Assembly: GCA_038214375.1 (NCBI GenBank)
Contig: JBBQRX010000006.1
Coordinates: forward strand, 39,979-103,978
DNA length: 64,000 bases
Source of the DNA: Candidatus Limnocylindrales bacterium
Lineage (GTDB): Bacteria; Chloroflexota; Limnocylindria; Limnocylindrales; CSP1-4
Reading direction: 5' to 3'
Under the pieces are notes generated by a model. That model was given only the letters and a program-made list of their open reading frames with translations. It did not search any database and was not told the DNA's origin. Below are positions 1,057 through 48,183 of the stretch, one piece after another. The position numbers were made by a program, and so were the translations under genes. Each line of letters opens with the position of its first letter. Positions within the stretch are counted from its first letter, which is position 1.

Positions 1057-1063
1057 GCACGGG

Positions 1064-2602: not shown

Positions 2603-2964
2603 CGTTCGCGGAACGGCAGCGCGGGCAGAGCCGCGCGGGCGGGCGCCGCGCGGGGCCACTCGTCACATTCGTACGTCCGCCGCACGAAATCGGCTCGGGT
2701 GTACGTTCAACGCACGATTCCGACGTACGGTTCGCCTCGGCTGCCTCGGGGATGCCTCCCAGGGGCCCAATCGGCCTGGAATCGGTCGCGTTCGTGCAGT
2801 CAACGTACGTTCGTGGCACCTCGCCACGTCCCGGGCCCCACCGTTCGGTCGGATCGTTCATCTGCCGCAAGCCGCGTCGCGGTTCGGACCACGGGCGGCC
2901 CCAGTGAGGCGGCCCTGGGCCTCCGCGGACATCAGCCGGCGCGGCGGTTGGCGGACACGGCGTC

Positions 2965-2973
2965 TGCTATCCT
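2965..2973 (+). promoter_or_regulatory. possible extended -10 (TGcTATCCT) for tRNA-Pro
   Basis: TGcTATCCT ends 8 nt before tRNA position 1 (2982). No clear -35. Confidence 0.3.
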
Positions 2974-2981
2974 CTCCGGGT

Positions 2982-3058
2982 CGGGGCGTGGCGCAGCTTG
3001 GTAGCGCACCTGAATGGGGTTCAGGAGGTCGAGCGTTCGAATCGCTCCGCCCCGACCA
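2982..3058 (+). tRNA. tRNA-Pro (anticodon GGG), CCA encoded
   Basis: Hand-folded cloverleaf: acceptor CGGGGCG/CGCCCCG, D stem GCGC/GCGC, anticodon stem CCTGA/TCAGG with loop ATGGGGT (GGG), T arm GAGCG-TTCGAAT-CGCTC, then ACCA. Confidence 0.9.
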
Positions 3059-3073
3059 TCGCCTGAACACGAG

Positions 3074-3104
3074 AATGGCCTCCGGTACGCCGCCGGGGGC
3101 CATT
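3074..3104. terminator. hairpin between tRNA-Pro and the convergent GH25 gene
   Basis: AATGGCCTCCGG (3074-3085) pairs with CCGGGGGCCATT (3093-3104) with one mismatch, followed by a T. Confidence 0.4.
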
Positions 3105-3216
3105 TGAATGGTCAGCCGTCCTCAGGCGACGGGCCCGACGTAGTAGATACCCTCCCAGCTGACGATGCCGTCGGGGGAGTTCGTGACCTCGAGGTTGGCG
3201 TGGAACGGTTCGCGCC

Positions 3217-5169: not shown

Positions 5170-5477
5170 GTTCGATCTCCCCGTGCCCTGGTCCTGGACG
5201 GCGAACCCGCGACGCGAAGGCCGTCCCGGGCTGCGTGGCACGTGATCCCGGCACGATCGTGTTCCGGGGGCCCTCGGAGCCTGGGGTTCGGCGAGGGAGC
5301 CTCCCCGATGCTACCAGCCGCGCGCCGGCACGTCCCGGCGTACCGTTGCGCCCCCGAAGGCCCGCACGGTGGGCGAGATACCGCAATGCGCGGCGGCAGA
5401 CCCCGCTATGGTTGACATGACGTCCCCCGGCGGCTCGACGCGGCCGGCCGGGGTCGTGCACGGACGGGAGACGGACG

Positions 5478-7340
<1,863 letters not shown>

Positions 7341-7417: not shown

Positions 7418-8869
7418 ATGAGCCCGGAGCAGTTCCGGGCGGCCGCCCACGCCACCGTGGACCTGCTCGCTGACTACCTGGAGCATGTCGAGGACTTCGC
7501 GATCCTGCGGCCGATCGAGCCGGGCATGCTCCGCGACCAGCTGCCACCGGACCCGCCCGAGGGCCCTGAGCCGATCGGGGCGATCCTCGCCGACGTCGCC
7601 CGGCTGGTCGAGCCGAACGCCACGCACTGGCAGCACCCGGGCTTCCTCGCGTACTTCGCGACCACGGCCTCCGGTCCCGGGATCCTCGGCGAGTTCGTCA
7701 CCGCGGTGCTGGGCCAGAACCCGATGCTCTGGCGGACCTCACCCGTGGGCACGGAGCTCGAGGAGGTGGTCGTCGGCTGGCTGCGGCGCGCGCTCGGCCT
7801 GCCCGACGCCTTCGACGGGCTGCTGACCGATACGGCCTCGACGTCGTCGCTCATCGCGATCGCCGCGGCGCGCGAGGCGGCCGGCCTGGACGTTTCGGCG
7901 CGCGGGCTCGCGGGGCGGCCGGAGATCGGGGCGCCCGTCGTCTACGCGTCGCAGGAGGCGCACAGCAGCATCGAGAAGGCGTGCATGACGCTCGGCCTGG
8001 GCCGGAGCGCCTGCCGTCGGATCGCGACCGACGACGCATATGCCATGCGGATCGATGCGCTCGAGGCGGCGCTCGCGGCGGACCGGGCCGCCGGGCGGAC
8101 GCCCATCGCGATCGTGGCAACGATCGGCACGACCTCGTCCACGGCGGTGGACCCCGTCCCGGCGATCGCGGACCTCGCCGCTCGCGAGCGGCTCTGGCTG
8201 CACGTGGATGCGGCGTACGGGGGCGCCGTGGCGCTCCTGCCGGATCGGCGGGGGCTCTTTGCCGGGTGGGAGCGCGCCGATTCGATCGTGGTGAACCCCC
8301 ACAAGTGGTTCTTCACACCGCTCGACGCGTCGCTCCTGTTGAGCCGTCGGATGCCCTCGCTCCGCGCCGCGTTCAGCCTGGTGCCGGAATACCTGCGCAC
8401 GCTGGACCGTGCTCGGCCCGTCCACGACTACAACGAGTACCAACCGCAGCTCGGACGCCGGATGCGCGCGCTCAAGCTGTGGTTCCTGGTCCGCTACTTT
8501 GGGATCGAGGGGCTCCGCCGGCGGATCGACGCCCACTGCCGGCTGGCGGCTGAGCTTGCCGGGGAGATTGACGCCAACTCGGACTTCGAGCGCCTGGCGC
8601 CCGTGCCCTTCTCGACGGTCTGCCTCCGCTGGCGACCCGCGGAGCTGGCCGGCCGCGAGGACGAGCCGGAGGTCCGCGCGCGCCTGGATGCGGCGAACGA
8701 GCGGCTGATGGCAGTCGTCAACGCCTCGGGCGAGATCTTCCTCTCGCACACGCGGCTGCGGGACCGGTTCGCGATCCGCGTCGCGATCGGCAACCTCCGC
8801 ACCGAGCCGCGCCACGTTGCGCGTGCCTGGGCGCTTCTCCAGTCCGAGGCCGCGCGGCTCGCCGGCTGA
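7418..8869 (+). CDS. PLP-dependent aromatic-L-amino-acid/tyrosine decarboxylase-like enzyme (group II decarboxylase)
   Basis: N-terminus MSPEQFRAAAHATVDLLADYLE, HWQHPGFLAYF, and the PLP-lysine context VNPHKWFF. ATG 7418 chosen; in-frame GTG 7337 overlapping the pckG stop is an alternative start. Confidence 0.85.
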   Translation: MSPEQFRAAAHATVDLLADYLEHVEDFAILRPIEPGMLRDQLPPDPPEGPEPIGAILADVARLVEPNATHWQHPGFLAYFATTASGPGILGEFVTAVLGQNPMLWRTSPVGTELEEVVVGWLRRALGLPDAFDGLLTDTASTSSLIAIAAAREAAGLDVSARGLAGRPEIGAPVVYASQEAHSSIEKACMTLGLGRSACRRIATDDAYAMRIDALEAALAADRAAGRTPIAIVATIGTTSSTAVDPVPAIADLAARERLWLHVDAAYGGAVALLPDRRGLFAGWERADSIVVNPHKWFFTPLDASLLLSRRMPSLRAAFSLVPEYLRTLDRARPVHDYNEYQPQLGRRMRALKLWFLVRYFGIEGLRRRIDAHCRLAAELAGEIDANSDFERLAPVPFSTVCLRWRPAELAGREDEPEVRARLDAANERLMAVVNASGEIFLSHTRLRDRFAIRVAIGNLRTEPRHVARAWALLQSEAARLAG

Positions 8870-11792: not shown

Positions 11793-12257
11793 GCCGGAGG
11801 ATCTCCTCGTCAAGGCACATCCCGCGGGGAGCGAATGCCGCCGGGCGGAAAGTGCGGACGCCTCCGGCGTAGGCATCGCCTGGAACTTGTTCTGCCCAAG
11901 CGTGACCCGCCGCTGACCCTGGGGGTGCCGCGCATCCACGCATTCCGCGGGATCCCGATCGAGCACGTGACTGCGATACGGCTGGCCTCCAGGTCGCCGG
12001 GTGCCGGAGTCCTGCGACGCTACTCCGGGTACCCGACCGAGCTGCACGACATCACCCACTGACACCGGGCGGGCCGTTTGCCCGGGTGAGGAGCCGCATA
12101 ACACCGGCCTTGTCGGGCCGAATGACCCTTGCAGGCGGGCGGATGGGCCCCTTCGCTATTCGAAGTGGGAGGCGTTGACACGCGGTCCTGACCGCAGCCA
12201 CCGGAACCGTGCCAAGCCACCGGCGAGACCGAGACGCGGGGAAGAGAGGCGACGCAG

Positions 12258-22258: not shown

Positions 22259-23896
22259 ATGAGCGTCCTCGCCGACCGCGACATCCGGGCCGAGCTGGAA
22301 TCCGGCCGCGTGCGCATCGAGCCCTACGACCCGATCGACCTCCAGCCGAGCTCCGTGGACCTCCACCTCGACCGGAGCTTCCGGGTCTTCCGCAACAACC
22401 GCTACGCCTTCATCGACGTCCGCCAGTCGCAGCCGGACCTGACCGAGCTCCTGTCGATTCGGGACGACGAGCCGTTCATCCTCCACCCGGGCGAGTTCGT
22501 GCTGGGCCAGACCGTCGAATGGGTGGAGCTGCCGGACGACCTCGTCGCGAGGCTCGAGGGGAAAGCGCTCGCCCTCGACACGCCCGTCCCCACGCCGCTC
22601 GGCTGGCGGACGATGGGCGATCTCGAGCCCGGCGACGACGTTTTCGACGAACGTGGGGCTCCGACACGGGTGATCGCCGCAACACCCCCGATGTTGGGAC
22701 GTCCATGTCGCGAGGTTCTGTTCTCAGATGGCACCCGCCTCGTCGCCGATGCTGCCCATCAGTGGCTGACGGTCGACAAGAACGGGCGTCGGTACGGGCG
22801 GTCCCGCGCAGCCATCCGCACGACCGACGAGATCGCCCGGACGCTCCACGTACGCGGCGAACGCAACCACCATGTGCCGCTGGCCGGCGCGGCCCAGTAC
22901 CCGCCCCGACTGGGCCTTCCGATCGAGCCGTACACGCTCGGCGCATGGCTCGGTGACGGGACGAGCACGAAGGCGGAGATCACGTGCTGCGACACCGAGA
23001 TCCTGGCCCAGATCAGCGGCGACGGTTACCAGGTCCGGAGGCTCAACTACGGCAACCATCTCTACCGAATCGGCGGGGAAGGACACACGCGTGACTCGGT
23101 GACCGGTCGATACAGCCGAAATGGGTCGATCTCGAGTCGTCTCCGCGCACTGGGGCTGCTTGGTAGCAAGGCCGTCCCGCGGCCATACCTCGAAGCCGGG
23201 ATCGCCCAACGGATGGCCCTCCTCCAGGGCCTGATGGACACCGATGGGTTCGTCGACGACGTGGCTGGCCGTTGCGAGTTCACGAGCACGAAGGAGGGTC
23301 TCGCCGAGGCCGTCGTCGAGCTTGCAGCGGGCCTCGGGCTCCGACCAATCAAATCGGCCAGCAGGGCGATGCTGAATGGGGTTGACCACGGGCCGAAGTA
23401 CCGGGTGAAGTTCACCCCGGATCGTCCGGTCTTCCGGATTCCCCGGAAGATCCTCCGCCAGAAGGCTGCGGACGCGCGCTTCCATCGCTTTCGGGCGATC
23501 GCCGACGTTCGAGAGGTGGCGTCGGTACCAGTGCGGTGTGTTCAGGTCGCGTCGCCGCGGGGCTTGTTCCTCGTGTCGCGTTCATTCATCCCGACGCACA
23601 ACAGCTCGCTCGGCCGTCTCGGCCTGCTGATCCACTCGACGGCGGGCTACGTGGATCCGGGCTGGAAGGGCAACCTGACGCTCGAGCTCTCGAACGTCGC
23701 GAACCTGCCAATCGCGCTCTACCACGGCATGCGGATCGGCCAGATCAGCTTCTTCCGGATGTCGAGCCCGGTCGAGCGGCCGTACGGCAGCGCCGGGCTC
23801 GGGTCGAAATACCAGGGCCAGAGCGAGCCAACCGCGTCCGCCTTCCACCGCGACTTCGCGGCCGGTCGCCGGCGCGGCCCGGATCCGGCGGGCTGA
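22259..23896 (+). CDS. dcd: dCTP deaminase precursor interrupted by an intein
   Basis: N-extein is MSVLADRDI...LVARLEGK. C-extein is [36 protein letters not shown]..., which are contiguous Dcd blocks. 346 aa of unrelated sequence lie between them. Confidence 0.9.
22565..23602 (+). mobile_element. intein (346 aa) with LAGLIDADG homing-endonuclease domain; Ala1 / Trp-Cys-Thr class-3 signature
   Basis: Block [11 protein letters not shown]. Block [13 protein letters not shown] (Trp codon 22763-22765). LAGLIDADG motifs LGAWLGDGT and [11 protein letters not shown]. Block F VRCVQV (Cys codon 23537-23539). Block G FIPTHN, then +1 Ser (23603). Confidence 0.85.
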
Positions 23897-26782: not shown

Positions 26783-26855
26783 GCCCCCGTAGCTCAGTGG
26801 ATAGAGCGAGGCCGTCCTAAGGCCTGCGTCGGCGGTTCGAGTCCGTCCGGGGGCG
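26783..26855 (+). tRNA. tRNA-Arg (anticodon CCT), no encoded CCA
   Basis: Acceptor GCCCCCG/CGGGGGC, D arm GCTC-AGTGGATA-GAGC, anticodon stem AGGCC/GGCCT with loop GTCCTAA (CCT), T arm GGCGG-TTCGAGT-CCGTC, discriminator G. Confidence 0.9.
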
Positions 26856-26856
26856 C
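26830..26856 (+). repeat. attL-like copy of a 27-bp direct repeat (3' part of tRNA-Arg)
   Basis: cggcggttcgagtccgtccgggggcgc is repeated exactly at 37848-37874. Confidence 0.75.
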
Positions 26857-27495
26857 TCCAGCAACGCAGCAGGCTCGAAGAAGGGCCGGGCAGGTGGCGT
26901 CCACTCGATGGACTCCGGCTCCACGCTCCGACCCTTTGCCTGGACCCTCTCGACCAGAAGCCGCACCAGCTCAGCGAGCTGGGGGCGGGTGGCTTTCTCG
27001 ACGTTCGCGGCCATCGTCACCATCACATGGCGGTTGCGGTCGAATGCGACCAGCTTGTTCGGGTCGGACAGCATCGTCCGCGTCTCGGTCACCTGGCGGC
27101 GATACTCCTGCCCGGTCAGGTCCCCCCCATCCGAACAACTACGTGAGCCGCGTCAGACGAGTCTCCAGGCGGCGGCGCTTCGATCCGACGAGGTCGGCAT
27201 CCGGCACGCTGAGCCGACGGGCCAGCTCCGCCCGCGCCTCGTCGATGGTCCTCGGTGGCAGCGTCATCGCCTGGACGGCCTCGATGACGAGACGCTCGGC
27301 ATCACCAGCCGGAACCGAGGGTGCATGGCACCTGCGGCAAACGTAGTACCGCCACTCGTGGCCTCGCGCAACGCGGCAGGCCCCATGCATGGGGTGGCCG
27401 TTCTCGCACGAGATCACGCCCCTCAACAGGTGGAACTCGATGCGCTGCCACCGGACAGGCTTCGGGCGCTGTACCAGGCGGCACTCAACCGCCAT
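26857..27495 (-). pseudogene. large serine recombinase, C-terminal remnant (zinc ribbon plus coiled-coil), disrupted
   Basis: ORF 27139..27495 carries the recombinase zinc-ribbon pattern (ISCENGHPMHG...YYVCRRCH). It ends at TAG 27139-27141. Reading resumes (LFGWG...) and shifts frame in a C7 run (27122-27128) into ORF 26817..27092. No N-terminal resolvase domain is present. Confidence 0.65.
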
Positions 27496-27643
27496 TGGGA
27501 CGTGTCCGCATAGGTGAGCCAGAACGCCGTATCGTCAGCCAGTTTTTCGGAGAATTGCGTGTCAGCTCGGTGTCGTCCTTCAGTAGGGCGGTCATGACGC
27601 CCATCGGACGAGTCGTACTGTGCGCCAGAATGCAGATGGGCAG

Positions 27644-30600
27644 ATGATCGACTTCCTCTCCGTCGAACGATACGTCGCCGCCCTCTCCACGGAGAAGGAG
27701 CGTGGAGATGCCTTCGAGCGTGCCGTCGCCCACCTCCTCCGGCACGATCCCGAGTTCGGCATCCGGCGGGTCTGGGGTTGGAGCGACTGGCCGGGACGGG
27801 AGGCAGTGGGTGCCGCCGCCAGGGATCTGGGTATCGACCTCGTTGCCGAGGACGCGACGGGTCGTCTGGTCGGCGTCCAGGTCAAGTTCCGACTCGACCC
27901 CGACCGGCTCATCCGCTGGCAGGACGTTGCGACCGCAGTCGGTTACCGGCCTGGCCTCTTCTCCCGCCGCCTAATCGTCACGAACGCCTGGGACCGGGGA
28001 CCGAACGCATACGAGGCCCTGGGGTCCCCCGGGGCCGCCAAGGAGCCGATCCAGTGGGTCCTCCGCGACGCCTTCCTCGCGAGCGAGATCGACTGGGCCG
28101 ACGCCCTGACGCACGGACTGTCAGGCGAGGCGACCCCGGAGCGCCGTCCCCGGACCCCCCGACCGCACCAGGTGCTTGCTGTCGCCGACACGGTCGCGAT
28201 CCTCCGCGAGAACCCTCGCGCCCAACTCGTCATGGCGTGCGGTTCGGGCAAGACGCTCGCGGCCCTGTGGATCGCCGAGGAGCGCAAGGACGAACGGGTC
28301 CTCGTCCTCGTGCCGTCCCTCCTTCTCCTCCGCCAGTTCCGCCGGGACTGGATCGAGTCGGCCACGCTCCCGTTCGTAGACCTCGTTGTTTGCTCGGACG
28401 AAACGACCGTCGGGCGCGACGAGGTCTGGGTCAGGACCGCCGACCTCGGTGTTGCGGTGACGACCGACGCATCGGAAGTCGCGGCGTTCCTGCGTGGCCA
28501 CGGTCGCAGCGTCATCTTCGCGACGTACCAGTCGAGCGAGCGGATCGCAGACGCCCAGGCCGACCCTAGCATCCCGGCGTTCGATCTCGTCGTCTGCGAC
28601 GAAGCGCACAAGCTCGCCGGGGTCCAGGCGTCGGGCGACGAACGGGAGCGCGACTTGAAGGTCGTCCTCGGTGCCGACCGCATTCGGGCCAGCCGACGGC
28701 TCTTCACGACCGCGACGCCCCGGATCTACGGGGCCGCGACGGAGAAACGGCTCGAACAGGGCGGAGCAGACATCGAGGTCGCCTCGATGGACGACCCGGC
28801 GGTCTTCGGCCCGGTCGCCCACCGCCTGACCTTCCGCTCGGCCGTCGAGCAGGGCATCCTCGTGGACGACGAACTCGTCGTCGTGGTCGTGACCGACGCG
28901 GAGATTGCCGACCTGATCGACCGCCGGGCGTTCGTCCGGGCCGAGGAGTTGACGACCGACGCCGAGTCGCTCGCCTTCCTCGTTGCTGTCCGCACGGCGA
29001 TCTCTGAGCTGGATCTGCGGCGCTCGATCTCGTTCCACTCGTCCATCGCCCGTGCCCGAGCCTTCGCCCGCTGGCTGCCGGAGGTGAGCGCGGACCACCC
29101 CGTCCCGGCGACTGGCCACGTCTCGGGACTCATGCCGACCGGAGAGCGGAACCGGGTTGTCGAACGCCTCCGTGACCCGGGGGTCCCGACGGTCGTCACG
29201 AACGCCCGCTGCCTGACCGAAGGGATCGACATCCCGGCGCTCGATGCCGTGCTGTTCGTAGACCCACGAGGCAGCCATATCGACATTGTGCAGGCTGTCG
29301 GGCGTGCAATGCGGACCGACCCCGGCAAAGAGTGCGGGCGCGTGATCATCCCGGTCTTCTTGACGGAGGCCGAGGGAGTTGATCCGGAAGCGGCGGTGGA
29401 GTCGAGCGCCTTCAAGCCCGTGCTTGACGTACTCCGGGCGATGCGGGCGCACGATGAGGAGCTGTCCGTCGAAGCCACACGTCTGCGCGTCGAGCTCGGG
29501 CGACGGGGCGGGGGCTTTGTGGACTCCAGGTTTCTAGCCGACCACATCCGTGTCCTCGACGCGGCGTCAGCAGTGGATGTCGCTGCGTTCCGCCGCGCCA
29601 TCCGCCTCCGCGCTGTCGAGCTCTCCGCTGACTCGTGGTCTTCCGGGATCGCCGCGCTTCAGGACTATGTCGCCCGCGAAGGCCACGCTCGTGTGCCACG
29701 GCCACGCGGCGAGGCTTCGGCACTTGCGACCTGGGTCAATCATCAGCGCGTCAGACACAGCGCCGGTCGTCTCGATCCGGCCCGGGTCGCCGAACTCGAG
29801 GGTTTGCCCGGCTGGACGTGGGACCCAGTCGCTGACGACTGGGTTTCTGGCGTGGCTGCCGTCCATGCTTTCGTCGCTCGCGAGGGCCACTCTCGTGTGC
29901 CCGCGAGGCATGTCGAGGGCGATCTCCGGCTTGGGACATGGATCTCAACGCAGCGTACCGGCCAGCACTCTGGTCGCCTCGATCCGACTCGTGCTGCTGA
30001 ACTCGAGGCGTTCCCCGGCTGGACCTGGGACCCCAGAACGGATGACTGGGTCGCTGGCATGGCCGCCATGCGAGTCTTCGTCGCCCGCGAGGGCCATGCA
30101 CGGGTGCCAGGGGACCACGTCGAGGGAGATCTGCGGCTCGGCTCGTTGCTCCATGAACGACGGGGCGACCGAAAGCGTGCTCGACGCGGCGACCGCATGA
30201 GGGGTCGTCTCGATCCGGCCATGGTCGCGGAACTCGAGGCTCTTCCCGGCTGGAGCTGGGACCCCCTCGCCGATGACTGGACTGCCGCCGTCGTTGCCCT
30301 CCGAGCCTTCGTCGCCCGCGAGGGCCACGCCCGGGTGCCGTATGGTTGGGTCGAGGGGGATCTCAGACTCGGGCAGTGGGTGGCTACGCGCCGCGCCGAG
30401 CACCGCGTCGGTCGTCTCGAACCGGCGCGTGCGGCGGAAGTCCAGGCCTTCCCAGGCTGGACGTGGGACCCCCTCTCCGACGACTGGGTTACGGCACTCG
30501 GTGCCCTACGCGCCTTCATTCTTCGAAAGGGTGACGCCCGGGTGCCGTATGGTTGGGTCGAGGAGGATCTGCGCCTTGGGCGATGGGTGATCAAGCGCCG

Positions 30601-30724
30601 CGCCGAGCACCGCGTCGGTCGTCTCGATCCCGACCGCGCTGCCGAACTCGAGGCGCTGACGGGCTGGGTTTGGGAGGTCCGCCCCCGCAGGCGAGCCGAG
30701 AAGAGAATGGGCAAAGGGACCTAG
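27644..30724 (+). CDS. Mrr-like (PD-(D/E)xK) nuclease / SF2 helicase (ResIII-DEAH) / five helicase-associated (HA) domain repeats
   Basis: N-terminus has GIDLVAED...VGVQVKF. Helicase motifs are ACGSGKT (I), VCDEAHKLAG (II), TATP (III) and QAVGRAMR (VI). The C-terminus has five ~65-75-aa repeats (W..G...L..FVAREGHARVP......DLRLG.W.....R...GRLDP.R.AELEA.PGW.WDP). Confidence 0.85.
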   Translation: MIDFLSVERYVAALSTEKERGDAFERAVAHLLRHDPEFGIRRVWGWSDWPGREAVGAAARDLGIDLVAEDATGRLVGVQVKFRLDPDRLIRWQDVATAVGYRPGLFSRRLIVTNAWDRGPNAYEALGSPGAAKEPIQWVLRDAFLASEIDWADALTHGLSGEATPERRPRTPRPHQVLAVADTVAILRENPRAQLVMACGSGKTLAALWIAEERKDERVLVLVPSLLLLRQFRRDWIESATLPFVDLVVCSDETTVGRDEVWVRTADLGVAVTTDASEVAAFLRGHGRSVIFATYQSSERIADAQADPSIPAFDLVVCDEAHKLAGVQASGDERERDLKVVLGADRIRASRRLFTTATPRIYGAATEKRLEQGGADIEVASMDDPAVFGPVAHRLTFRSAVEQGILVDDELVVVVVTDAEIADLIDRRAFVRAEELTTDAESLAFLVAVRTAISELDLRRSISFHSSIARARAFARWLPEVSADHPVPATGHVSGLMPTGERNRVVERLRDPGVPTVVTNARCLTEGIDIPALDAVLFVDPRGSHIDIVQAVGRAMRTDPGKECGRVIIPVFLTEAEGVDPEAAVESSAFKPVLDVLRAMRAHDEELSVEATRLRVELGRRGGGFVDSRFLADHIRVLDAASAVDVAAFRRAIRLRAVELSADSWSSGIAALQDYVAREGHARVPRPRGEASALATWVNHQRVRHSAGRLDPARVAELEGLPGWTWDPVADDWVSGVAAVHAFVAREGHSRVPARHVEGDLRLGTWISTQRTGQHSGRLDPTRAAELEAFPGWTWDPRTDDWVAGMAAMRVFVAREGHARVPGDHVEGDLRLGSLLHERRGDRKRARRGDRMRGRLDPAMVAELEALPGWSWDPLADDWTAAVVALRAFVAREGHARVPYGWVEGDLRLGQWVATRRAEHRVGRLEPARAAEVQAFPGWTWDPLSDDWVTALGALRAFILRKGDARVPYGWVEEDLRLGRWVIKRRAEHRVGRLDPDRAAELEALTGWVWEVRPRRRAEKRMGKGT
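29633..30679 (+). repeat. in-gene tandem array of five HA-domain coding repeats
   Basis: The repeats start at SWSSG, DWVSG, DWVAG, DWTAA and DWVTA. The third carries a 9-residue Arg-rich insertion and lacks the conserved Trp after LRLG. Confidence 0.7.
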
Positions 30725-31218
30725 AGCCGGACGTAGTCCACGGCGTTGTCGTCGAGGGAGTCCTTCCGCTTCCAGTACCGCTCAGTCATCCTCGGGTCGG
30801 CGTGTCCAGCCGCCCTCTGCACGACGTGAAGCGGCGTTCCGCCTTCGAGGGCCAGCGTGACGAAGGTGGCCCGCAGGCCATGCGGGCCCAGCCGCTCGAG
30901 GCCAGCGGCCCGCAGCCGACGGACGACGACCTGATAGACCGCCCGGTCGGACAGCGGATGCCGACCGGGTATGTGTCCGCCCTTGCGAACCTCGACGAAG
31001 AGTGGATCATCGCCAACCAGCTCGAGGCCAGCCTCCGTCGCCGCAACGAGCCAGTCGTCGATCAGCCATTGGACGTCGGGGGGAACCTTGACCGTCCTCA
31101 CCACGTTGCCCTTGCCGGTGATGGTCAGGACGTGGTGTCCCTGCCCGGACGCGACCCCGCCATCATGGGCGCCGTGGACGCCCTCGGCCCGTCGGGGCGG
31201 GAGCGTGGTGGCGGTCAC
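30721..31218 (-). pseudogene. tyrosine recombinase/integrase, C-terminal catalytic half only
   Basis: HGLRATFVT (HxxR), AGHADPRMTERY (His and catalytic Tyr). Only 165 aa, with no N-terminal SAM-like/core-binding domain and no first catalytic Arg. Confidence 0.7.
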
Positions 31219-31399
31219 GGGCGACGCCGCCCGCGCTGACCGTTGCCGCGACCCTCATATGCAACGGGGAGATCGTCCACACGACGCTAGGCGTCGGAGG
31301 CGGCCCTCATCGCGACCGGCGAGACGGCCCCGCCCTGCCGTCTTCCTGAGAGCGAAGGATCGGGGACGAGCGCCGTGCCTCGCGTGCATGCACCCGCCG

Positions 31400-32760
31400 C
31401 GAACGCAGGCATTCGACGCTCTCTCTATGAAGAAGGGCCGGCTGTCAAGCCGATTGGTGGATGGGTGACGGTTCCCCGTCCGGTTCGAGCTGTGCTCATC
31501 TCTCTATCGCCTCCTGCGGGGAGGACCAGGTTGGATCGGATGCTCCGGCGGCCCATCTCAGACGAGGGTCGTCAAGCGACCAGAGGGCGCGCGGGGGGCC
31601 TGCCGGGAGCGAACGGTTCGTTCTTCGTCAGCATGTGCCAGATCGCGGTGCTGATCTCGCGGGCGAGCTCGACCCGGGCGACCTTCGCTCCGCGCTGACG
31701 GCCGAGGCGCTGCTTGGTGCGCTCGTACCGCTCGCGGTAGGCGGGATGGCGGGCGGCGTGGGTGGCGGCCTCGATGAGCGCCCAGCGCAGGTACTTCGGG
31801 CCGTTCTTGGCGAGCGGACCGCGATCGTCCCGACGGCCCGACTGGCGGACGATCGGGCACAGCCCGGTGTACCCGGCGAGCTTCTTGGGACTGCTGAACC
31901 TCCCGATGTCGCCGACCTCGGCGGCGATCGTGTAGCCGAGCACCCAGGCGATCCCGGGCACGGTCATGAGGTGCGGGACGTACCGGTGGTCGGCACCGGC
32001 TGCCCGGAGCTCGCGTTCACAGGTCGCGATCTGGGCGTCGAGCTCGTCGACGAAGTGCAGGCTCCGCTCGAGCGTGGCCACCCAGGGCTCGGGAACGGCC
32101 AGGCTCGCGAGCAGCTCGCGTCCCTTCGTCCCGAAGAGGTCGGATACCGGGACCGGGTGGCCGAACGCGATGAGGGTGGCGTGGATCCGGTTCTTGAGCG
32201 CCGTCCGGTGGCGCACGAGGTGGAGCCGGAAGCGCGCCCGCTCGCGCTCGGCCCGCACCGACGGATCGGGCAGCCAGATGGCGGGCACGAGGTCGCGCCG
32301 CCCGAGCTCGGCGAGGACCCAGGCGTCGATCTTGTCGGTCTTGGCGGCCAGGGGTGCGAGGCCCTTGACCTTCACCGCGTCGGCGATCTCGACATCCCAG
32401 CCGTAGAGCTCGAGCTGGTCGTGGACGAAGCGGGCCCCGTTCATCGACTCGATCGTCGCGGTCACCTCCTGGCCATGCCTCGAGATCCGGGCGACGAGCT
32501 CGCGGAGCCCGAAGACCTCGGGCGTTGCCGCGGTCACCTCGACCGTCCGGCCTTCCTCGTCGAGGACGTGCACATCAAGCCTCTGGCGCGACAGGTCCAA
32601 TCCGGCGTACAACATGCGTGGGCCTCCAAGGTGCTGGTTGCGATGACAACCCAACGTTGCCACCGCGGAGGCCCTTCTTCATGACATTCAGTCCCGTCGG
32701 GGTTCACGGTGGGGAACGGTCGAGACCACCCCGCCGTCCTGCGTGTATGGCCTCAGCTCA
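31400..32760 (-). mobile_element. IS110-family insertion sequence (ends not determinable by eye)
   Basis: Contains the transposase gene above. IS110 elements typically lack inverted repeats, so the boundaries are only a rough guess. Confidence 0.3.
31572..32615 (-). CDS. IS110-family transposase
   Basis: MLYAGLDLSRQRLDVHVLDEEG N-terminal DEDD-type domain and C-terminal block GIAWVLGYTIAAEVGDIGRF...AGYTGLCP. Confidence 0.9.
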   Translation of the reverse strand: MLYAGLDLSRQRLDVHVLDEEGRTVEVTAATPEVFGLRELVARISRHGQEVTATIESMNGARFVHDQLELYGWDVEIADAVKVKGLAPLAAKTDKIDAWVLAELGRRDLVPAIWLPDPSVRAERERARFRLHLVRHRTALKNRIHATLIAFGHPVPVSDLFGTKGRELLASLAVPEPWVATLERSLHFVDELDAQIATCERELRAAGADHRYVPHLMTVPGIAWVLGYTIAAEVGDIGRFSSPKKLAGYTGLCPIVRQSGRRDDRGPLAKNGPKYLRWALIEAATHAARHPAYRERYERTKQRLGRQRGAKVARVELAREISTAIWHMLTKNEPFAPGRPPARPLVA

Positions 32761-33256: not shown

Positions 33257-33431
33257 GGCCTGATCTCGCGTCCGGGCCGACCTGAGAGGGACCCCCTAAC
33301 GACGGCCCGGGGGTTACGTTAGTACTGGTGGCGGGAGGCGTCGACACGCGGTCCAGACTCTGGTCGCCCGGGACCGTGCCGAGCCAATGGCGAGACCGAC
33401 CCGCATCGATCGGACTCCACTGGAGGCAACA

Positions 33432-34688: not shown

Positions 34689-36385
34689 ATGAAGCCAATC
34701 ACGCGTCGACGCTTCCTCCAGTACGGAGTGGGAATCGGCACCGCACTCGCGGTGCCGGCGTGGGTGGGAACGCCGCTGGCGAGCGGGGCGAAGGGCGGCA
34801 AGCTGGCGAAGTACCTCGAACCGCTGCCGCTCCCCGGGGCCGGGATCGTCGTGGCTGCCCAAAGCGGCCCGAACCAGTATGCCTTCAGCCAGACCCAGAT
34901 CACCCGCCGCCTGCACCCGGACCTGCCGGCGACCCCGATCTGGGCGTACGACGACGGCTCCGGGCTCGCGGGTCAGGCTGGGTCGTTCGGGATGGCGATC
35001 GTTGCCCAAAGCGGCACCCCGCTCGAGGTGAGCTACACCCATGACCTGCCGGAGACCTACCCAGCCTGGATCCCGGTCGATACGCGGCTGACGCCGCTCG
35101 GCACCCAGGTGCGCCTCATGACCCACCTGCACGGGGGCTTCGTGGCGGCCGCCAGCGATGGCAATCCGACAGTGACGCCAAACGGCTTCGGCCGGGGCGA
35201 CACCCAGCGCGTCTTCTATCCCAACCAGTCGCCGCAGATGCCTGCGTCCATGCTCTGGTTCCACGACCATGGCCTGGGGACGACGCGCCTGAACGTGTTC
35301 GCCGGGTTGGCTGGCGCCTACATCCTGCGCGACCAGTACGACACCGGCACGGAACCCAACCCGGCGGGCATCCCCGGCGGTGCCTACGAGATCCCGCTCG
35401 TGATCCAGGACCGCCAGTTCAACCCCGACGGCACGTTCCGCTACCCAACCAGCGACATCGCCGGGGTCACTTGGGTCGGGGAGTACTTCGGCGACGTCAT
35501 GCTGGTCAACGGCAAGGTCTGGCCGTACCTCGAGGTCGAACCGCGGATGTACCGCCTTCGGATCCTCAACGGCTGCAACGCGCGGATCCTGAGCCTCGAC
35601 ATCGGCGGAGTTGACTTCTGGCAGATCGGCGCGGAGGGCGGCCTGTTCGACATCCCGGTGCCGGTCAAGGAGCTGGTGCTGGCGCCGGCCGAACGGGCCG
35701 ATGTGCTCGTCGATTTTCGCAAGTTTGCCGGCGCGAGGTTGGTGCTCAAGAACCACCGGCCGTCACGACCGGTCGTGACCCCGGCACCGTCGCTCGAGCA
35801 GGTGATGCAGATCCGGGTCGGAACGACGATCTCCCACCCTGGTCCGAGCTCGGTGCCCTCGAGCCTGCCTGGACGCGCTGCCGACCTGCACAATCCGGTC
35901 GCGACACGCTACATCACGCTCAACGAGATCGATGTCGACGAGTCGACGTGGTTCTTGAACCTCAACGGCCTGCACTTCGACGATGGGCCGATCACGGAAA
36001 CTCCAAGGCTCGGCACGGTCGAGGACTGGGTCTACGTCAACCTCACTGCGGACACGCACCCCATGCACTCCACCTCGTCACCTTCCAGGTGGTCGGTCGC
36101 ACCCCATTCGATGTGCAGGCCTATGAGGAGGCCACCGAGGGCCCGCATGGCGTCCCCGGCGGAATCGACCCGACCCACTTCGCGACGGGTCCGATGCTGC
36201 CGCCCGCTCCCGAAGAGCGCGGCTTCAAGGACACCGTCAAGGCGAACCCAGGCTATTTCACCACCATCCGGGCGAAGTTCGAGTTGCCGACTGGCGTAAC
36301 GGCGCCGCAGACCTATGTGCACCACTGCCACATCGTCGAGCACGAGGACAACGACATGATGCGGCCCTTCACCGTCACGGTCTGA
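34689..36385 (+). pseudogene. Tat-secreted multicopper oxidase (CotA/bilirubin-oxidase-like) with a 1-nt deletion frameshift
   Basis: Twin-arginine leader MKPITRRRFLQYG. Copper motifs HLHGG and WFHDHG. At 36063-36079 the DNA reads atgcactccacctcgtc where atgcacCtccacctcgtc (HPMHLHLV) is expected. The C-terminal part (LHLVTFQ...HCHIVEHEDNDMM) continues in ORF 35948..36385. Confidence 0.8.
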
Positions 36386-43076: not shown

Positions 43077-46000
43077 ATGGCTCGTCCGACCAAGCGACGG
43101 GGCGCCATCCTCGTCGTTGACGATGACGCGGCCGTTCGCGCGCTCATCGGGACGCACCTCCGCCGGCAAGGCTTCGAGGTTCGCGAAGCGACGGACGGCG
43201 AGCTGGCCCTGGGCATGATCGAAGAGGAGGCCTTCGCCCTCGTCATCCTCGACATGAACATGCCCGGAATGTCCGGTGCCGATGTCGTGCGGCGGCTCCG
43301 GGAGCACCTCGAAACGGAGGCCCTCCCGGTCCTGATCCTGACCGGCAAGAGCGACAAGTACCCGCTTGTCGAAAGTCTGGCGATCGGCGCGGACGGCTAC
43401 CTCACGAAGCCGATCCGTCTCGACGAGCTCACGGCCCTCGTTCGGGCGCGGTTGCGGATCGACCGCGCCTCGGCCCAAAAAGCCCTCCGCGAAAATGAGG
43501 GGTTCTACCGGACGCTCGTCGAAGGGTCCGCCGATGGCATCCTGGTCTCGGACGCGAGCGGCCGCTACGTCGAGGCGAACGCGGCCATCTACCGGATGCT
43601 CGGCTACTCGCGCGACGAGATCCTCGCGAGGTACTCGCCAAACCTGAGCGCAACCGACGATCCGCTGACTCCTGCCGACATGGACGAGCGGCTGGCGGAG
43701 ACGCAGGCCGGAACCGGCCTCCTCGTCGAGCGGCGGTACCGGCGCAAGGATGGAACCAGCCTGCCGGCCGAGGTCAGCTACACGGTCCTCCCCGACGGCC
43801 GCCTGCAGCGCACCATCCGCGACATCACCGTGCGCCTCGCGGCCGACGCCGAACAGGCTCGCCTCACCGCGAGCCTCCGCGAAAGCGAGCGAACGCTTCG
43901 CGAGAGCGAACGCAACCTCGCGGAAGCACAACGAATCGCCCATGTAGGCAGCTGGGAGCGTGACCTCGGGACAGGGGCGGTCCGATGGTCAGAGGAGACG
44001 CGCCTGATCCTCGGCCTGGAGCCGGGCAGGACCCAGGGGACGATCGACGACTTCCTCGCCTTCGTGCATCCCGACGATCGAGACCGGGCAGCCGCGAGCC
44101 AATCGGACCTCCACGCCTCGTGGACGCCGACCGAGCGGGAGTACCGGATCATTCGGCCGGATCGTTCGACCCGTCACCTTCGCGAACGTGCAGAGGTCAT
44201 CCGAGACGCCGCGGGAACCCCGCTTCGGTATGTCGGCTCGACCCAGGATGTGACCGACGAGGTCGCGGCCGAGGCAGAACGGGCGAGCCTTGTCACAGCC
44301 CTGCGGACGTCCGAGGCACAGTTGCGGACCGCCCTCGACACGATGGTCGACGGCGTGGCCATCCACCGCGCGATCCGCGACGATCAGGGCCGGATCATCG
44401 ACTTCGTGATCGACTACGCGAACACGGCGGTCGTCGCGACGAGAGCCATCGCTGGCAGCCTGCGGGTGGGTCGCACGCTCCTCGAGCTGTTCCCCGCCGA
44501 CCGCACCAACGGGCTCTTCGACGCCTACGTCAGCGTGGTCGAGACGGGAGCCCCCTTCGAAACCGACGACTTCCCGTATGTCGAGCCCGACGCGGCCAGC
44601 GGCGTCTCCGAGCAGGTGCTCGACCTGCGGGCGGCGAGGCTTGGCGATGGACTGATCATCGTGGTGCGCGACGTCACGTCGCGCCATCGCGCCGAGTTCG
44701 AGATGCGGCGCCTGGCCCATGCGATCGAGCAATCGGCGGACGCCGTCATGATCACCGACGGCGATGCCCGAATCGAGTACGTCAACTCGGCGTTCGAGCA
44801 GGTCAGCGGCTACACCCGCAACGAGGTCCTGGGTCAGAACCCACGCATCGTCAAGAGCGGCATCCAGGGACCCGCCTTCTACGCGGCGATGTGGGCTGCC
44901 CTCTCGGGCGGCCAGTCGTTCGTCGCCGAGCTGACGAACCGCCGCAAGGACGGCAGCCTCTACCAGGAGGAGGCCGTGATCTCTCCGATCCGCGACAACG
45001 GCGGCAAGATCACGAGCTACGTCGCGGTCAGCCGTGATGTCACCCGCGAACGCGCCCGCGAGGCCGAGCAGGAGCGGCGCGCCCGCGAGCGGGCGATCAT
45101 CGGCGGGACGTTGGCCGCAATCCGGCCAGGGGCGACGGCCGAGGCGACGGCCGAGCTGATCTGTCGACAGGTGGCCAGCATGACCGAGGTCGCCTCGGCC
45201 GCTATCCACTACTTCGCCATCGATCGGCGGGCGACGCCCCTGGCGATGGTGCGGGCTGACGGCGGGCCCGTCCCGATGCTTTCGCTCCCGGCCCGGCGAA
45301 GCGAGACCCTGCGCCAGCGGGCTGCCGAGGGTCCGTGGGTCGAGGCGTGGGCTGATCGGCCCGGGACTCGGAACCAGCGGATGATGCACGGCCTCGGCCT
45401 CTCGGCGATCGCCCGGGTTCCGATCAACCACGACGGACAGCTCATCGGGATCCTCGCCGCGACCTCGGCCGCATCCGATGCGATCGCGGGGTTGACCGAG
45501 CACCTGCCCGCCCTCCTCGAGTTCGCGGGGATCGCCGGTGCGCTCGTCGGTGCGCGTGTCATCGACCTGACGGAGGGCGGCCGGCTCCGGGCTCGCGTGG
45601 AGCGGATCATCGCGTCCTGCGCGTTCTCGCCGGTCTTCCAGCCCATCGTGGACATCACCAGCGGCGAGCACGTCGGATATGAGGCGCTCACCCGATTCTC
45701 GGAGGGCATTCGCCCGGACCTCGTCTTCGCCGACGCGAGTGCTGCTGGGGTCGGCCTGGAGCTCGAGGCGGCGACCCTCGCGGCTTCGGTGGAAGCCTCT
45801 GCTGGGTTGCCGGGCGGCGCCTGGCTCAGTCTCAACGTCTCGCCGCACCTCGTGGTCGCCGGCGATCTCCTCGCCCGGCTCCTCGGGGGTGCGCACCGAC
45901 CCGTCGTGCTGGAGGTGACCGAGCACACGCCGGTCGGCAGCTACCCGGAGCTACGTGCGGCTCTCACCCGCCTCGGATTGGGTGTCCGCGTGGCCGTCGA

Positions 46001-46295
46001 CGATGCCGGCACAGGGGTGGCCAACTTCAGCCACATCGTCGAACTTCGGCCTGCGTTCGTGAAGCTCGACATCAGCCTCGTTCGTGGCGTCGACTCGGAT
46101 CTCACCTGTCAGGCCCTTATCGTCGGACTGCAGCACTTTGCCCGGGAGTCTTCGAGCGAGGTGATTGCCGAAGGGGTCGAAACGGCGGAGGAGCTGGCCG
46201 CCCTGCGAACGTTGGGTGTCCGGTTGGTGCAGGGATACCTCCTCGGGCGGCCGGAGCCGGTGATCCTCGCCGCGGCGCCCACCGTGGTGGTCTGA
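43077..46295 (+). CDS. response-regulator receiver / 4x PAS / GAF-like / EAL-domain protein (predicted c-di-GMP phosphodiesterase, no GGDEF)
   Basis: REC domain: ILVVDDD...ALVILDMNMPGMSG...LTGK. Four PAS-like modules. EAL blocks: YEALTRF, LEVTEH, AVDDAGTG, FVKLDISLV, AEGVET, VQGYLLGRP. ATG 43077 lies within ORF 42816... Confidence 0.85.
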   Translation: MARPTKRRGAILVVDDDAAVRALIGTHLRRQGFEVREATDGELALGMIEEEAFALVILDMNMPGMSGADVVRRLREHLETEALPVLILTGKSDKYPLVESLAIGADGYLTKPIRLDELTALVRARLRIDRASAQKALRENEGFYRTLVEGSADGILVSDASGRYVEANAAIYRMLGYSRDEILARYSPNLSATDDPLTPADMDERLAETQAGTGLLVERRYRRKDGTSLPAEVSYTVLPDGRLQRTIRDITVRLAADAEQARLTASLRESERTLRESERNLAEAQRIAHVGSWERDLGTGAVRWSEETRLILGLEPGRTQGTIDDFLAFVHPDDRDRAAASQSDLHASWTPTEREYRIIRPDRSTRHLRERAEVIRDAAGTPLRYVGSTQDVTDEVAAEAERASLVTALRTSEAQLRTALDTMVDGVAIHRAIRDDQGRIIDFVIDYANTAVVATRAIAGSLRVGRTLLELFPADRTNGLFDAYVSVVETGAPFETDDFPYVEPDAASGVSEQVLDLRAARLGDGLIIVVRDVTSRHRAEFEMRRLAHAIEQSADAVMITDGDARIEYVNSAFEQVSGYTRNEVLGQNPRIVKSGIQGPAFYAAMWAALSGGQSFVAELTNRRKDGSLYQEEAVISPIRDNGGKITSYVAVSRDVTRERAREAEQERRARERAIIGGTLAAIRPGATAEATAELICRQVASMTEVASAAIHYFAIDRRATPLAMVRADGGPVPMLSLPARRSETLRQRAAEGPWVEAWADRPGTRNQRMMHGLGLSAIARVPINHDGQLIGILAATSAASDAIAGLTEHLPALLEFAGIAGALVGARVIDLTEGGRLRARVERIIASCAFSPVFQPIVDITSGEHVGYEALTRFSEGIRPDLVFADASAAGVGLELEAATLAASVEASAGLPGGAWLSLNVSPHLVVAGDLLARLLGGAHRPVVLEVTEHTPVGSYPELRAALTRLGLGVRVAVDDAGTGVANFSHIVELRPAFVKLDISLVRGVDSDLTCQALIVGLQHFARESSSEVIAEGVETAEELAALRTLGVRLVQGYLLGRPEPVILAAAPTVVV

Positions 46296-46465
46296 CCAGG
46301 AGCTGGATCGAGCGGGGCGCATCGACTCGCCTCCCGGCCAGGAGACCGTGGACGTCCGCCAGTGGGGTGCCGACGAGCCGGCCGATCGCGTTGCGGGATC
46401 GCGCCATCCGCCGCCGCCCGGCACGCGAAGTACCGATGAACCCCGTGGACAAGGAGCCCGACCCG

Positions 46466-47329
46466 ATGACTTCTCTCACCGCCGACGCGGGCAGCGTCGC
46501 GACCGAACGCAGCGAAGGGACGGCCATTCCAGCCGCCAGGAGCCGTTCGCTCCGGCGCTGGAACCGGGGCCTGACATTCGCGCACGGCCTGCAGTTCGTG
46601 GCGATGATCGCGATCTCCGCGACCACCGTCCGGTTCGAGCCGGTCGTGCCGACCATCCGGCCGATCATCGAGAATGGGAAGTTCACCGGCGTCGAGCCGT
46701 CGAGCGTGGTTCTGTTCTCCGTGCCGCTCGTGTTCGTGATCGCCTCGTTCTTCCTCATGAGCGCGATCGCCCACGCGTCCGCAGGCTGGTTCCTGCGCGG
46801 TCGCTACGAGGGGTTCCTGGCGCGTGGGATGAACCCGCTGCGCTGGGTCGAGTACGCGTTCTCATCGACGGTGATGATCGTGGCGATCGCCTATCTGAGC
46901 TACATCACCGACTTCCCCGCGCTGGTCGCAATCGCGGGTGCCAACGTGGCCATGATCCTCTTCGGCTGGAGCATGGAGGCCGCCAACGAGGGGCGCCTGA
47001 TGAAGGGCGAGCCCATCGACTGGAAGCACTTCATCTTCGGGTGCATCGCGGGCGCCGTCCCGTGGATCGCGATCTTCTCGATCCTGTGGGCCTATTCCGC
47101 GCAGGACGGGCTCTCGGCGGACGCCGGCATCCCTGCCTTCGTCTACGTGATCATCGGCAGCCTGTTCGTGGCATTCAACATCTTCGCGATCACGATGGTC
47201 CTTCAATACCGGAAGGTCGGCCGCTGGAGCGACTACCTGTACGGCGAGAAGACCTACATGGTCCTGAGCCTGGTCGCGAAGTCGCTCCTCGCCTGGCAGG
47301 TCTGGTCCGGCACGCTGCGCCCATCCTGA
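46466..47329 (+). CDS. heliorhodopsin (7-TM retinal protein)
   Basis: AAGGAG lies 9 nt upstream of ATG 46466. Blocks NPLRWVEYAFSSTVMIV (Glu codon 46850-46852), AMILFGW, FGCIAGAVPWI, IPAFVYVIIGSLF and YMVLSLVAKSLLAWQVWSGTL (Lys codon 47279-47281) match my recollection of heliorhodopsin 48C12. Confidence 0.85.
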   Translation: MTSLTADAGSVATERSEGTAIPAARSRSLRRWNRGLTFAHGLQFVAMIAISATTVRFEPVVPTIRPIIENGKFTGVEPSSVVLFSVPLVFVIASFFLMSAIAHASAGWFLRGRYEGFLARGMNPLRWVEYAFSSTVMIVAIAYLSYITDFPALVAIAGANVAMILFGWSMEAANEGRLMKGEPIDWKHFIFGCIAGAVPWIAIFSILWAYSAQDGLSADAGIPAFVYVIIGSLFVAFNIFAITMVLQYRKVGRWSDYLYGEKTYMVLSLVAKSLLAWQVWSGTLRPS

Positions 47330-47370
47330 CCGAGGCCCTGCCCTTGGTGGAGCCCTCGAGGGCGGTGATC

Positions 47371-48183
47371 ATGAGTGATACGAACGAGATCGGCACCTGG
47401 CACTACGGGCTCATTGCGCGGTGGTGGGCCGAGTTCAACTTGCCGGAGCCCGCAGAGGCCGCCTACTACGAGGCGGCGATCCGCCGGTTTGGCGAGCCGG
47501 CGCTCGACCTGGGATGCGGGACGGGCAGAATCCTCGTGCCCATGCTGGCAGCGGGACTCGATGTCGATGGCGTCGATGTCTCGCCCGACATGATCGCCTA
47601 CGCGAGGAGCCGGTCGCTGCAGGCCGGATTCACACCTGCCCTCGCCGCCCAGCCGCTGCACGAGCTCGACCTGCCGCGAACCTACCGGACCATCTACGTC
47701 TGCGGCGTCTTCGGGCTCGGGGGCCGGCGCGACAACGACCGCGAGGGCCTGCGGCGGGCGTACCGGCACCTGGCGCCGGGCGGTGCCCTGGTCCTCTGGC
47801 ACGAGCTGCCGTGGGCCGGTCAGGACGAGCAGGGATGGGCGCGGTGGCTGCCAGGACGTCGCGTCGGGATCCCGCGAGCGTGGCCGGCCGAGGGCGACCG
47901 ACGGCGTGCCGCCGATGGCGACGAGATCGAGCTCGTCAGCCGCCTGGTCTCGTTCGATCCCCTGGCCCAACGGCAGGAGCTCGAGATCCGGGCTCGCCTC
48001 TGGCGCGCCGGTGAGCTCGTGCGGGAAGAGACCCACAACCTCAGCGAGAACCTGTACTTCGCGCAGGAGCTGCTGCTGCTCCTCGACGAGGCGGGGTTTC
48101 GAGACGTCACGGTCCAAGCGGCCTATACCGATCGACCGGCCACGGCCGAGGACGAGACCGTGGTGATCGTGGCGCGGCGCTGA
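47371..48183 (+). CDS. class I SAM-dependent methyltransferase
   Basis: Motif I ALDLGCGTGRIL and DVDGVDVSPDM. Starts 41 nt after the heliorhodopsin stop. Confidence 0.8.
   Translation: MSDTNEIGTWHYGLIARWWAEFNLPEPAEAAYYEAAIRRFGEPALDLGCGTGRILVPMLAAGLDVDGVDVSPDMIAYARSRSLQAGFTPALAAQPLHELDLPRTYRTIYVCGVFGLGGRRDNDREGLRRAYRHLAPGGALVLWHELPWAGQDEQGWARWLPGRRVGIPRAWPAEGDRRRAADGDEIELVSRLVSFDPLAQRQELEIRARLWRAGELVREETHNLSENLYFAQELLLLLDEAGFRDVTVQAAYTDRPATAEDETVVIVARR

Follow-up and report, generated by a model that had tools for sequence, protein, structure and literature searches.

Among solved heliorhodopsin (HeR) structures, the best match to the gene considered here is 48C12, encoded on a freshwater actinobacterial fosmid and represented by PDB entries 6su3 and 6uh3. 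Two further members of the same protein family have been paired with the products of other genes: AbHeR with glutamine synthetase, which supports a role of the protein as sensor or regulator (Cho 2022; PMC9529153), and OcHeR with the OmrDE ABC transporter, in a work that also provides a catalogue of HeR neighbour groups including glutamine synthetase, photolyase, MerR and SDR (short-chain dehydrogenase/reductase) (Cho et al. 2024; PMC11109279). Two regulatory systems depending on extracytoplasmic function (ECF) sigma factors serve as further references, namely LitR/LitS of Streptomyces, for which an experimentally supported consensus GCATCCR-N15-CVGAAD is given by the sigma-LitS-dependent crtE promoter (PMC11519972), and SigK-RskA of mycobacteria, encoded in a conserved mpt83-sigK-rskA cassette and responding to an inducing signal that is unknown (PMC7509140). 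Here, we describe a HeR gene at positions 46466..47329 (+) of a 64-kb stretch of DNA, below called the window (64,000 nucleotides of contig JBBQRX010000006.1 from a Candidatus Limnocylindrales bacterium), together with a short two-block motif in front of it which we consider a putative promoter of the SigK/LitS type, and compare both with these described systems.

A first-pass annotation of the window had identified the open reading frame (ORF) at 46466..47329, consisting of 287 codons and a TGA stop, as a heliorhodopsin with seven transmembrane (TM) helices, and this identification is borne out by family profiles, structure matches and alignment with 48C12. The Pfam profile PF18761 (Heliorhodopsin) is matched over positions 1-242 of 242 with E = 1.5e-77 and 260.6 bits (gathering cut-off 26.7), the NCBIfam equivalog NF038020 "heliorhodopsin HeR" reaches 256.3 bits (cut-off 100), and the type-1 rhodopsin profile PF01036 (Bac_rhodopsin) gives no match to the ORF even at E <= 1. 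Six solved structures match the ORF, every one of them a heliorhodopsin, with 48C12 (6su3, E = 1.7e-49) on top and TaHeR-type entries next. Pairwise alignment with 48C12 yields 46% identity over 244 aligned residues, a level at which the fold is uncontroversial, bringing residues 26-286 of the query against residues 9-255 of 48C12, and the protein is also colinear with TaHeR; its hydropathy profile contains seven hydrophobic segments colinear with the helices of solved HeRs. Thus the profile search and the alignment to 48C12 and other solved HeRs, both proposed in the first-pass annotation as checks, support its assignment, and the sequence blocks it had quoted (RWVEYAFSSTVMIV, MILFGW, FGCIAGAVPWI, IPAFVYVIIGSLF and LSLVAKSLLAWQVWSGTLRP) are all found.

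The functional positions of the family are retained to a large extent. The TM3 glutamate and the lysine pointed out earlier, with codons at 46850..46852 and 47279..47281 (both +), do align with E107 and K241 of 48C12 and correspond, respectively, to Glu129, the single Schiff-base counterion, invariant in the closest 120 homologues, and to Lys272, the retinal Schiff-base lysine of TM7, invariant in 120 of 120. The histidine pair of TM1/TM2, the loss of which has been linked to an M-intermediate that accumulates to a low level (Chazan et al.), is represented by His40 (46583..46585, +; H23 of 48C12) and His103 (46772..46774, +; H80), as assigned by the same alignment and by comparison of homologues. 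Altogether, 21 of the 24 functional positions compared are identical to 48C12, and those 21 are invariant across the 120 homologues; besides the counterion and the lysine they include H23, Q26, S76, H80, N101, R104, W105, Y108, S112, N138, M141, G145, E149, W173, F206, Y226, E230, S237 and W246 (48C12 numbering), so that, as far as alignment can tell, the hydrogen-bond network of 48C12 is kept in its Ser, Asn, Arg, Trp, Tyr and Glu residues. The three departures from 48C12 are clade-wide, since among the closest homologues Q213 is replaced by Met in 120/120 (Met244 of the window protein, codon 47195..47197, +), S113 by Thr in 120/120 and S109 by Ala in 110/120. Further differences from 48C12 concern the host phylum, Chloroflexota, the longer DE and EF loops, and the N-terminal cytoplasmic tail, which is longer and more basic, as had been noticed in the first reading: it has 17 extra residues and 6 Arg within residues 1-34. 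Counting of Lys and Arg gave 16 in the N-terminal tail and the BC, DE and FG loops versus 3 in the AB, CD and EF loops and the C-terminus, and this distribution of charge fits the inverted topology of the family with the N-terminus predicted to be inside. Since GC content at third codon positions (0.92) is like that of the surrounding genes, and the ratio of nonsynonymous to synonymous substitution rates (dN/dS) against seven relatives is 0.14-0.19, the gene looks native and is under purifying selection. Judged from its sequence, the segment 46466-47329 holds a heliorhodopsin gene that is intact, maintained by selection and equipped with the hallmark residues of the family.

Within its very large clade, this gene is nothing out of the ordinary. 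The search over about 5.8 billion proteins, with 8,000 candidates scored, returned at least 5,862 homologues at E <= 1e-10; the best 120 matches, on which the homologue statistics given here are based, are 74-100% identical to the query, and those few that have a name are given as "heliorhodopsin HeR" of Chloroflexota or Candidatus Limnocylindrales metagenome-assembled genomes (MAGs). In species-representative genomes, 80 loci, all from MAGs, encode proteins 64-86% identical to the window HeR; 75 of them bear the label Chloroflexota or that of a class within it, most often Candidatus Limnocylindrales or Limnocylindria, with 5 labelled otherwise, and many of these MAGs come from soil, judged by isolate names. 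GC content of the window is 71%, and the host is most likely a high-GC bacterium of the Limnocylindria group of Chloroflexota.

Alignment of the otherwise unalignable regions upstream of related HeR genes revealed two blocks, CCATCCG-N15-CGAA(G/T/C), which are kept at fixed spacing with a spacer free in sequence. In the window, the motif reads CCATCCG-N15-CGAAG, occupies 46404..46430 (+), as delimited by the cross-locus alignment and a position weight matrix (PWM), and may represent the -35 and -10 elements recognized by an ECF sigma factor of the SigK/LitS type. It ends 35 nt before the ATG at 46466, with a Shine-Dalgarno sequence in between (AAGGAG, 46451..46456, +, read from the sequence, 9 nt before the ATG). 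This ATG is one of three in-frame start candidates and is taken as the true start because of that AAGGAG and because in L083, the locus of the closest relative, the ATG corresponding to 46436 falls out of frame and leads into a stop codon; the succession of (A)GGAG and ATG is also aligned across eight related loci. Two other candidates were rejected: GTG 46367 lies upstream of the putative promoter, and ATG 46436, apart from its out-of-frame counterpart in L083, is located at the predicted 5′ end of the transcript.

The motif was surveyed in 83 HeR loci (the window, L003-L083 and L087) totalling 1.35 Mb. The strict pattern was matched 63 times versus about 15 in shuffled sequences, and in 22 loci the match is placed identically before HeR, against an expectation of about 0.1; 14 of the 63 matches were discarded as a coding artefact arising from the conserved stretch IRYDHVLE inside the glutamine synthetase gene. 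By PWM, the motif precedes HeR in 31 of the 83 loci. In the window, the site before HeR is the sole exact match and the top-scoring PWM site, with 21.1 bits versus 15.3 for the next one, which is inside a coding region. Written as gCCATCCG-N14-GCGAAG and compared with the Streptomyces sigma-LitS consensus, it agrees at 6 of 7 positions of the first block and 5 of 6 of the second, with a spacer shorter by 1 nt; the putative -35/-10 blocks are nearly identical, and the candidate target is a rhodopsin gene instead of carotenoid genes. The PWM also places the motif before genes of other types, i.e., those for ECF sigma factors (L023, L031, L036 and L037), fasciclin, DUF4397, SDR and NAD-binding/DUF2867 proteins. 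The distance to the ECF sigma ORFs is 7-19 nt, the pattern expected for autoregulation.

Genomic context divides the clade along the same line. Clustering of genes located no more than 4 positions from HeR in 79 loci revealed a NAD_binding_10/NmrA plus DUF2867 protein near HeR in 29 (directly adjacent on the same strand in 25), a MerR regulator with B12-binding domain, best matching CarH in NCBIfam, in 25, and a glutamine-synthetase family enzyme in 25 as well; other neighbours are SDR (16), amino-acid permease (14), fasciclin (13), DNA photolyase (12) and DUF4397 (11). These recurrent neighbours agree with the published neighbour groups (Cho et al. 2024; PMC11109279), and no homologue of the recurrent families is found anywhere in the window. 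Among the 31 motif-bearing loci, which include the window and its closest relatives, CarH-like MerR-B12 regulators, glutamine synthetase and photolyase were each found in 0 of 31; in contrast, the published neighbour types recur in the 52 motif-less loci of the 83, with MerR-B12 in 27, glutamine synthetase in 26, SDR in 20 and photolyase in 14. Hence HeR of this clade sits in two mutually exclusive contexts, either with CarH, glutamine synthetase and photolyase or with the SigK/LitS-type ECF motif. The window HeR, with the partner genes of AbHeR and OcHeR absent from the 64 kb, belongs to the ECF-motif group, the motif having been carried along despite the shuffled neighbourhood.

The loci in which the motif precedes sigma genes indicate what the complete system may look like. 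In L023, L031, L036 and L037 the best NCBIfam match of these genes is ECF SigK (1e-49, 168.9 bits, below the cut-off of 226). The most extended arrangement, a SigK-RskA-type locus at L023 1567-13816, contains SDR, Polyketide_cyc2, Amino_oxidase, DUF1365 and CMAS genes followed by the SigK-like sigma gene, a zf-HC2/RskA_C anti-sigma gene, DUF4397, a B12-binding protein devoid of helix-turn-helix (HTH) domain, HeR, NAD-binding/DUF2867 and two fasciclin genes; L031, L036 and L037 are similar, and the motif precedes several units of this locus. The B12-binding protein without HTH stands directly before HeR in L023 and L036, which adds to the likeness with the LitR/LitS system, where an ECF sigma context is likewise combined with B12-binding domains. 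MPT83 and MPT70 are fasciclin-domain proteins, and the presence of the motif before fasciclin genes, along with the best match of the sigma factor to SigK and the adjacent anti-sigma gene, makes the L023-type locus resemble the mycobacterial mpt83-sigK-rskA cassette with HeR added. The order of Amino_oxidase, DUF1365 and CMAS upstream of sigma in L023 is presumably also that of the sigK locus of Mycobacterium tuberculosis (Rv0447c-Rv0449c). The differences from mycobacteria are the score of the relatives' sigma factors, which stays under the NCBIfam cut-off, the lack of heliorhodopsin among the described SigK targets, and the window itself, where none of the sigK-rskA-type genes is found. On this basis we tentatively propose, at somewhat less than even confidence, that in a large Limnocylindria group including the window genome HeR belongs to the core of a regulon governed by an ECF sigma factor of the SigK/LitS type, other putative targets being the fasciclin (MPT83-like), DUF4397, SDR and NAD-binding/DUF2867 genes and the gene of the sigma factor itself. 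A set of genes of the cyclopropane/furan-type fatty-acid class and the gene for the B12-binding protein share loci with these putative targets.

Several observations weigh against this interpretation. At least one match to the strict pattern occurs in 19 of 100 shuffles of the 64 kb, and therefore the lone match in the window is not significant; the evidential weight of the motif comes from its position and cross-locus conservation rather than from the window match alone. The PWM was trained on sites first chosen by eye, which brings some circularity into the counts. Relative to the Streptomyces consensus, the spacer anchored on GAA is 1 nt shorter and both blocks deviate at their first base. 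Pfam scans revealed no ECF sigma, anti-sigma or B12-binding gene in the 64 kb, making the cognate regulator hypothetical for the window genome. Finally, a cascade leading from LitR to LitS to HeR and encoded in cis was considered and found unsupported, as the LitR-type MerR-B12 regulators that occur in 27 of the 52 motif-less loci accompany the motif in 0 of 31; the B12-binding proteins that do go with the motif, in L023 and L036, are all devoid of HTH.

The strongest competing explanation is that the upstream element is not a promoter at all, being instead a conserved leader or untranslated region (UTR) element or a chance likeness, and that HeR is expressed from a housekeeping-type promoter or by read-through from the preceding gene for an EAL-domain protein. 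The deviating spacer, the single match in the window and the lack of a cognate sigma gene there are compatible with this, and the scan of 46200-47500 for sigma-70 consensus and intrinsic terminators, which found 0 sites with 0 expected and is uninformative at 71% GC, leaves room for a conventional promoter. Against it stands the conservation of two short blocks at a constant distance of 15 nt amid a diverging spacer and surroundings, the promoter-like distance to the start codon with the ribosome-binding site in between, the recurrence of the motif before the ECF sigma, fasciclin, DUF4397, SDR and DUF2867 genes of related loci, and the near match to an ECF promoter consensus which was derived independently and defined experimentally. 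We thus regard this alternative as fairly unlikely, and consider it somewhat more probable than not that the motif is a real, if still putative, ECF promoter. The nature of the inducing signal, light versus redox, is put forward with lower confidence than the promoter. If the SigK/LitS-type reading is correct, HeR would be transcribed as a self-contained unit from its own ECF promoter, as comparative genomics suggests, and since the motif is of this type its expression would follow an ECF sigma/anti-sigma system encoded elsewhere, which may switch the gene on under light, photo-oxidative or envelope/redox stress.

The immediate neighbourhood of HeR in the window offers a different set of candidate partners. 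Upstream, separated by 170 nt, lies a gene for a 1072-aa protein with REC, three PAS, GAF and EAL domains by Pfam (43077..46295, +), a putative cyclic di-GMP (c-di-GMP) phosphodiesterase. Its start is uncertain, the ORF being open from 42816; the EAL signature motifs YEALTRF, EVTE, KLD, EGVE and QGY look intact by eye, which suggests an active c-di-GMP phosphodiesterase. Downstream, 41 nt after the HeR stop codon, begins a class-I S-adenosylmethionine (SAM) methyltransferase gene (47371..48183, +), followed, according to Pfam, by a second methyltransferase, a DUF3558 protein, a third methyltransferase and a SpoU methylase. Between HeR and the downstream methyltransferase a scan, uninformative at this GC content, showed no intrinsic terminator, and co-transcription of the two is possible; their adjacency is not conserved.

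Comparison with relatives delimits what has been inherited with HeR. In none of the 80 related loci does one of the window genes 33-48 stand beside HeR, and a conserved EAL-HeR-methyltransferase operon was ruled out, being absent in these 80 loci and with the contexts of four close relatives (P0006, P0082, P0002 and P0009) all different. In L083, whose HeR is 93% identical in protein and 91% in nucleotide sequence, the only block shared with the window, as detected by blastn and tblastx of L083-L087 against it, is 46394..47333 (+; L083 6489-7431), which comprises the putative promoter, the 5′ UTR and the ORF, extending beyond the coding sequence by 72 nt upstream and 4 nt downstream, the flanks having no detectable similarity. 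Because homology stops at these limits, the EAL and methyltransferase neighbours were not inherited with HeR, which thus acts as a unit of its own amid rearranged surroundings. The sharp break of synteny suggests relocation or horizontal exchange of a single-gene unit within the clade. In L083, two large genes of Guanylate_cyc plus AAA_16 (STAND-type) nucleotide cyclases (817-6274) precede HeR on the same strand, the position held in the window by the EAL protein, a second-messenger enzyme of another kind; and an element resembling a c-di-GMP-II-type riboswitch (approximately 8324-8400, -) is located just upstream of the methyltransferase adjoining the L083 HeR.

Such surroundings could be taken to mean that HeR is coupled to cyclic-nucleotide signalling, light-activated HeR binding and modulating the upstream EAL phosphodiesterase or the downstream methyltransferase, in analogy to the pairs of HeR with glutamine synthetase and with the ABC transporter. 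The same-strand adjacency of the three genes in the window, the cyclases and the riboswitch-like element at L083, the occasional occurrence of GGDEF/EAL genes near HeRs (Bulzu et al.) and the fact that the published partners, glutamine synthetase and the ABC transporter, are encoded beside HeR all speak in its favour. Nevertheless, an EAL, a cyclase or a homologous methyltransferase gene is adjacent to HeR in 0 of 80 related species, the neighbours were not co-inherited as judged from L083, the putative promoter is interposed between the EAL gene and HeR, and signalling genes are abundant in such genomes, making chance adjacency likely. We find this coupling quite improbable.

Concerning the protein itself, its identity as a heliorhodopsin and a general mode of action as light sensor or regulator are proposed with high confidence, and by analogy with characterized relatives light sensing through a slow photocycle is the most likely function. 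The window HeR would bind all-trans-retinal, pass through a slow photocycle, and sense light or exert regulation by contacting a partner protein, not by pumping ions. None of the published HeR partner genes is present in the 64-kb window. 48C12 is not known to transport ions. Since ion transport has been reported for a viral HeR, V2HeR3, one might suppose that the window protein likewise acts as a light-gated proton channel. Its relatedness to 48C12, with the counterion and the histidine and serine network kept, and the published contrast between bacterial HeRs having partner genes and viral HeRs lacking them (Cho et al. 2024; PMC11109279) argue otherwise, and we consider transport very improbable.

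The source of the chromophore was addressed at the level of the window. All 55 genes called by a frame-specific GC model, and additionally the eight longest ORFs of the 9.5 kb left uncovered by the gene caller, were scanned against Pfam, and no SQS_PSY, lycopene cyclase, Blh/BCD, RPE65/CCO, polyprenyl synthase or Amino_oxidase of the phytoene-desaturase type was found in the 64 kb, the sole isoprenoid-related match being IspH/LytB (91-1056). This agrees with the earlier statement that no crtE/B/I/Y or blh-type genes occur here; the significance implied for their absence is not supported, for published surveys make it the norm of the family. A complete de novo retinal pathway was found in just 1 of 381 HeR-only genomes (Bulzu et al.), blh is rare both beside HeR genes and genome-wide in HeR-only organisms, and genome-wide co-occurrence of blh and HeR is mostly observed where another rhodopsin is also present (Chazan et al.); absence of the pathway within 64 kb is therefore expected for heliorhodopsins. 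Some aquatic Limnocylindria MAGs carry carotenoid genes and xanthorhodopsin-like type-1 rhodopsins. The window gives no information on the remaining genome; retinal may be made by genes located outside it, or the cell may import it or convert it from carotenoid or retinol of external origin, a route suggested for most HeR-only organisms. That the gene is a functionless remnant whose apoprotein never receives retinal, a supposition drawing on the lack of pathway genes in the 64 kb, is hardly credible for an intact ORF with a good Shine-Dalgarno sequence, low dN/dS, and the retinal lysine, counterion and most checked positions invariant in 120 homologues, the more so as HeR persists in HeR-only organisms, in which the pathway is generally absent.

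Several other features of the window were recorded. Two c-di-GMP-II-GAG riboswitch aptamers (Rfam RF03169) are located at 12159-12243 (+) and 33325-33410 (+), with 43.6 and 74.7 bits, respectively, versus the gathering threshold of 40, both upstream of small ORFs without Pfam match. The dCTP deaminase gene at 22259-23896 (+) is split by an intein-like insert, which carries a LAGLIDADG homing-endonuclease domain; DCD is matched in two halves, at residues 3-102 and 462-522. A likely mobile island (approximately 26783-32615) adjoins tRNA-Arg(CCT) and contains small ORFs, a 1026-aa Mrr_cat_2/ResIII helicase with five "helicase associated" (HA) repeats, a phage-integrase fragment and an IS110-family transposase. 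A multicopper-oxidase-like ORF at 34752-36299 (+) has weak Pfam matches (Cu-oxidase, E about 0.004); its C-terminal part of about 75 residues is rich in Arg, Ser and Pro, like an out-of-frame read, and it may be a frameshifted or decaying gene.

Taken by itself, one more uncharacterised heliorhodopsin added to thousands of near-identical relatives in soil Chloroflexota matters little. The proposal of the promoter and regulon is the only element of some novelty and is purely computational; a search of the literature for heliorhodopsin in combination with LitR, LitS, CarH or Limnocylindria found no connecting paper. If the regulon proposed here is true, a heliorhodopsin would for the first time have a defined transcriptional control, HeR would be connected with a response to light or photo-oxidative membrane stress, and there would be a hint of what induces SigK-RskA systems, a signal long unknown. 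Provided that the promoter is real, it would also link HeR with a widespread ECF system, one with an activating signal reported as unknown (PMC7509140), and would offer a testable handle on the timing of HeR expression, bearing on what heliorhodopsins do.

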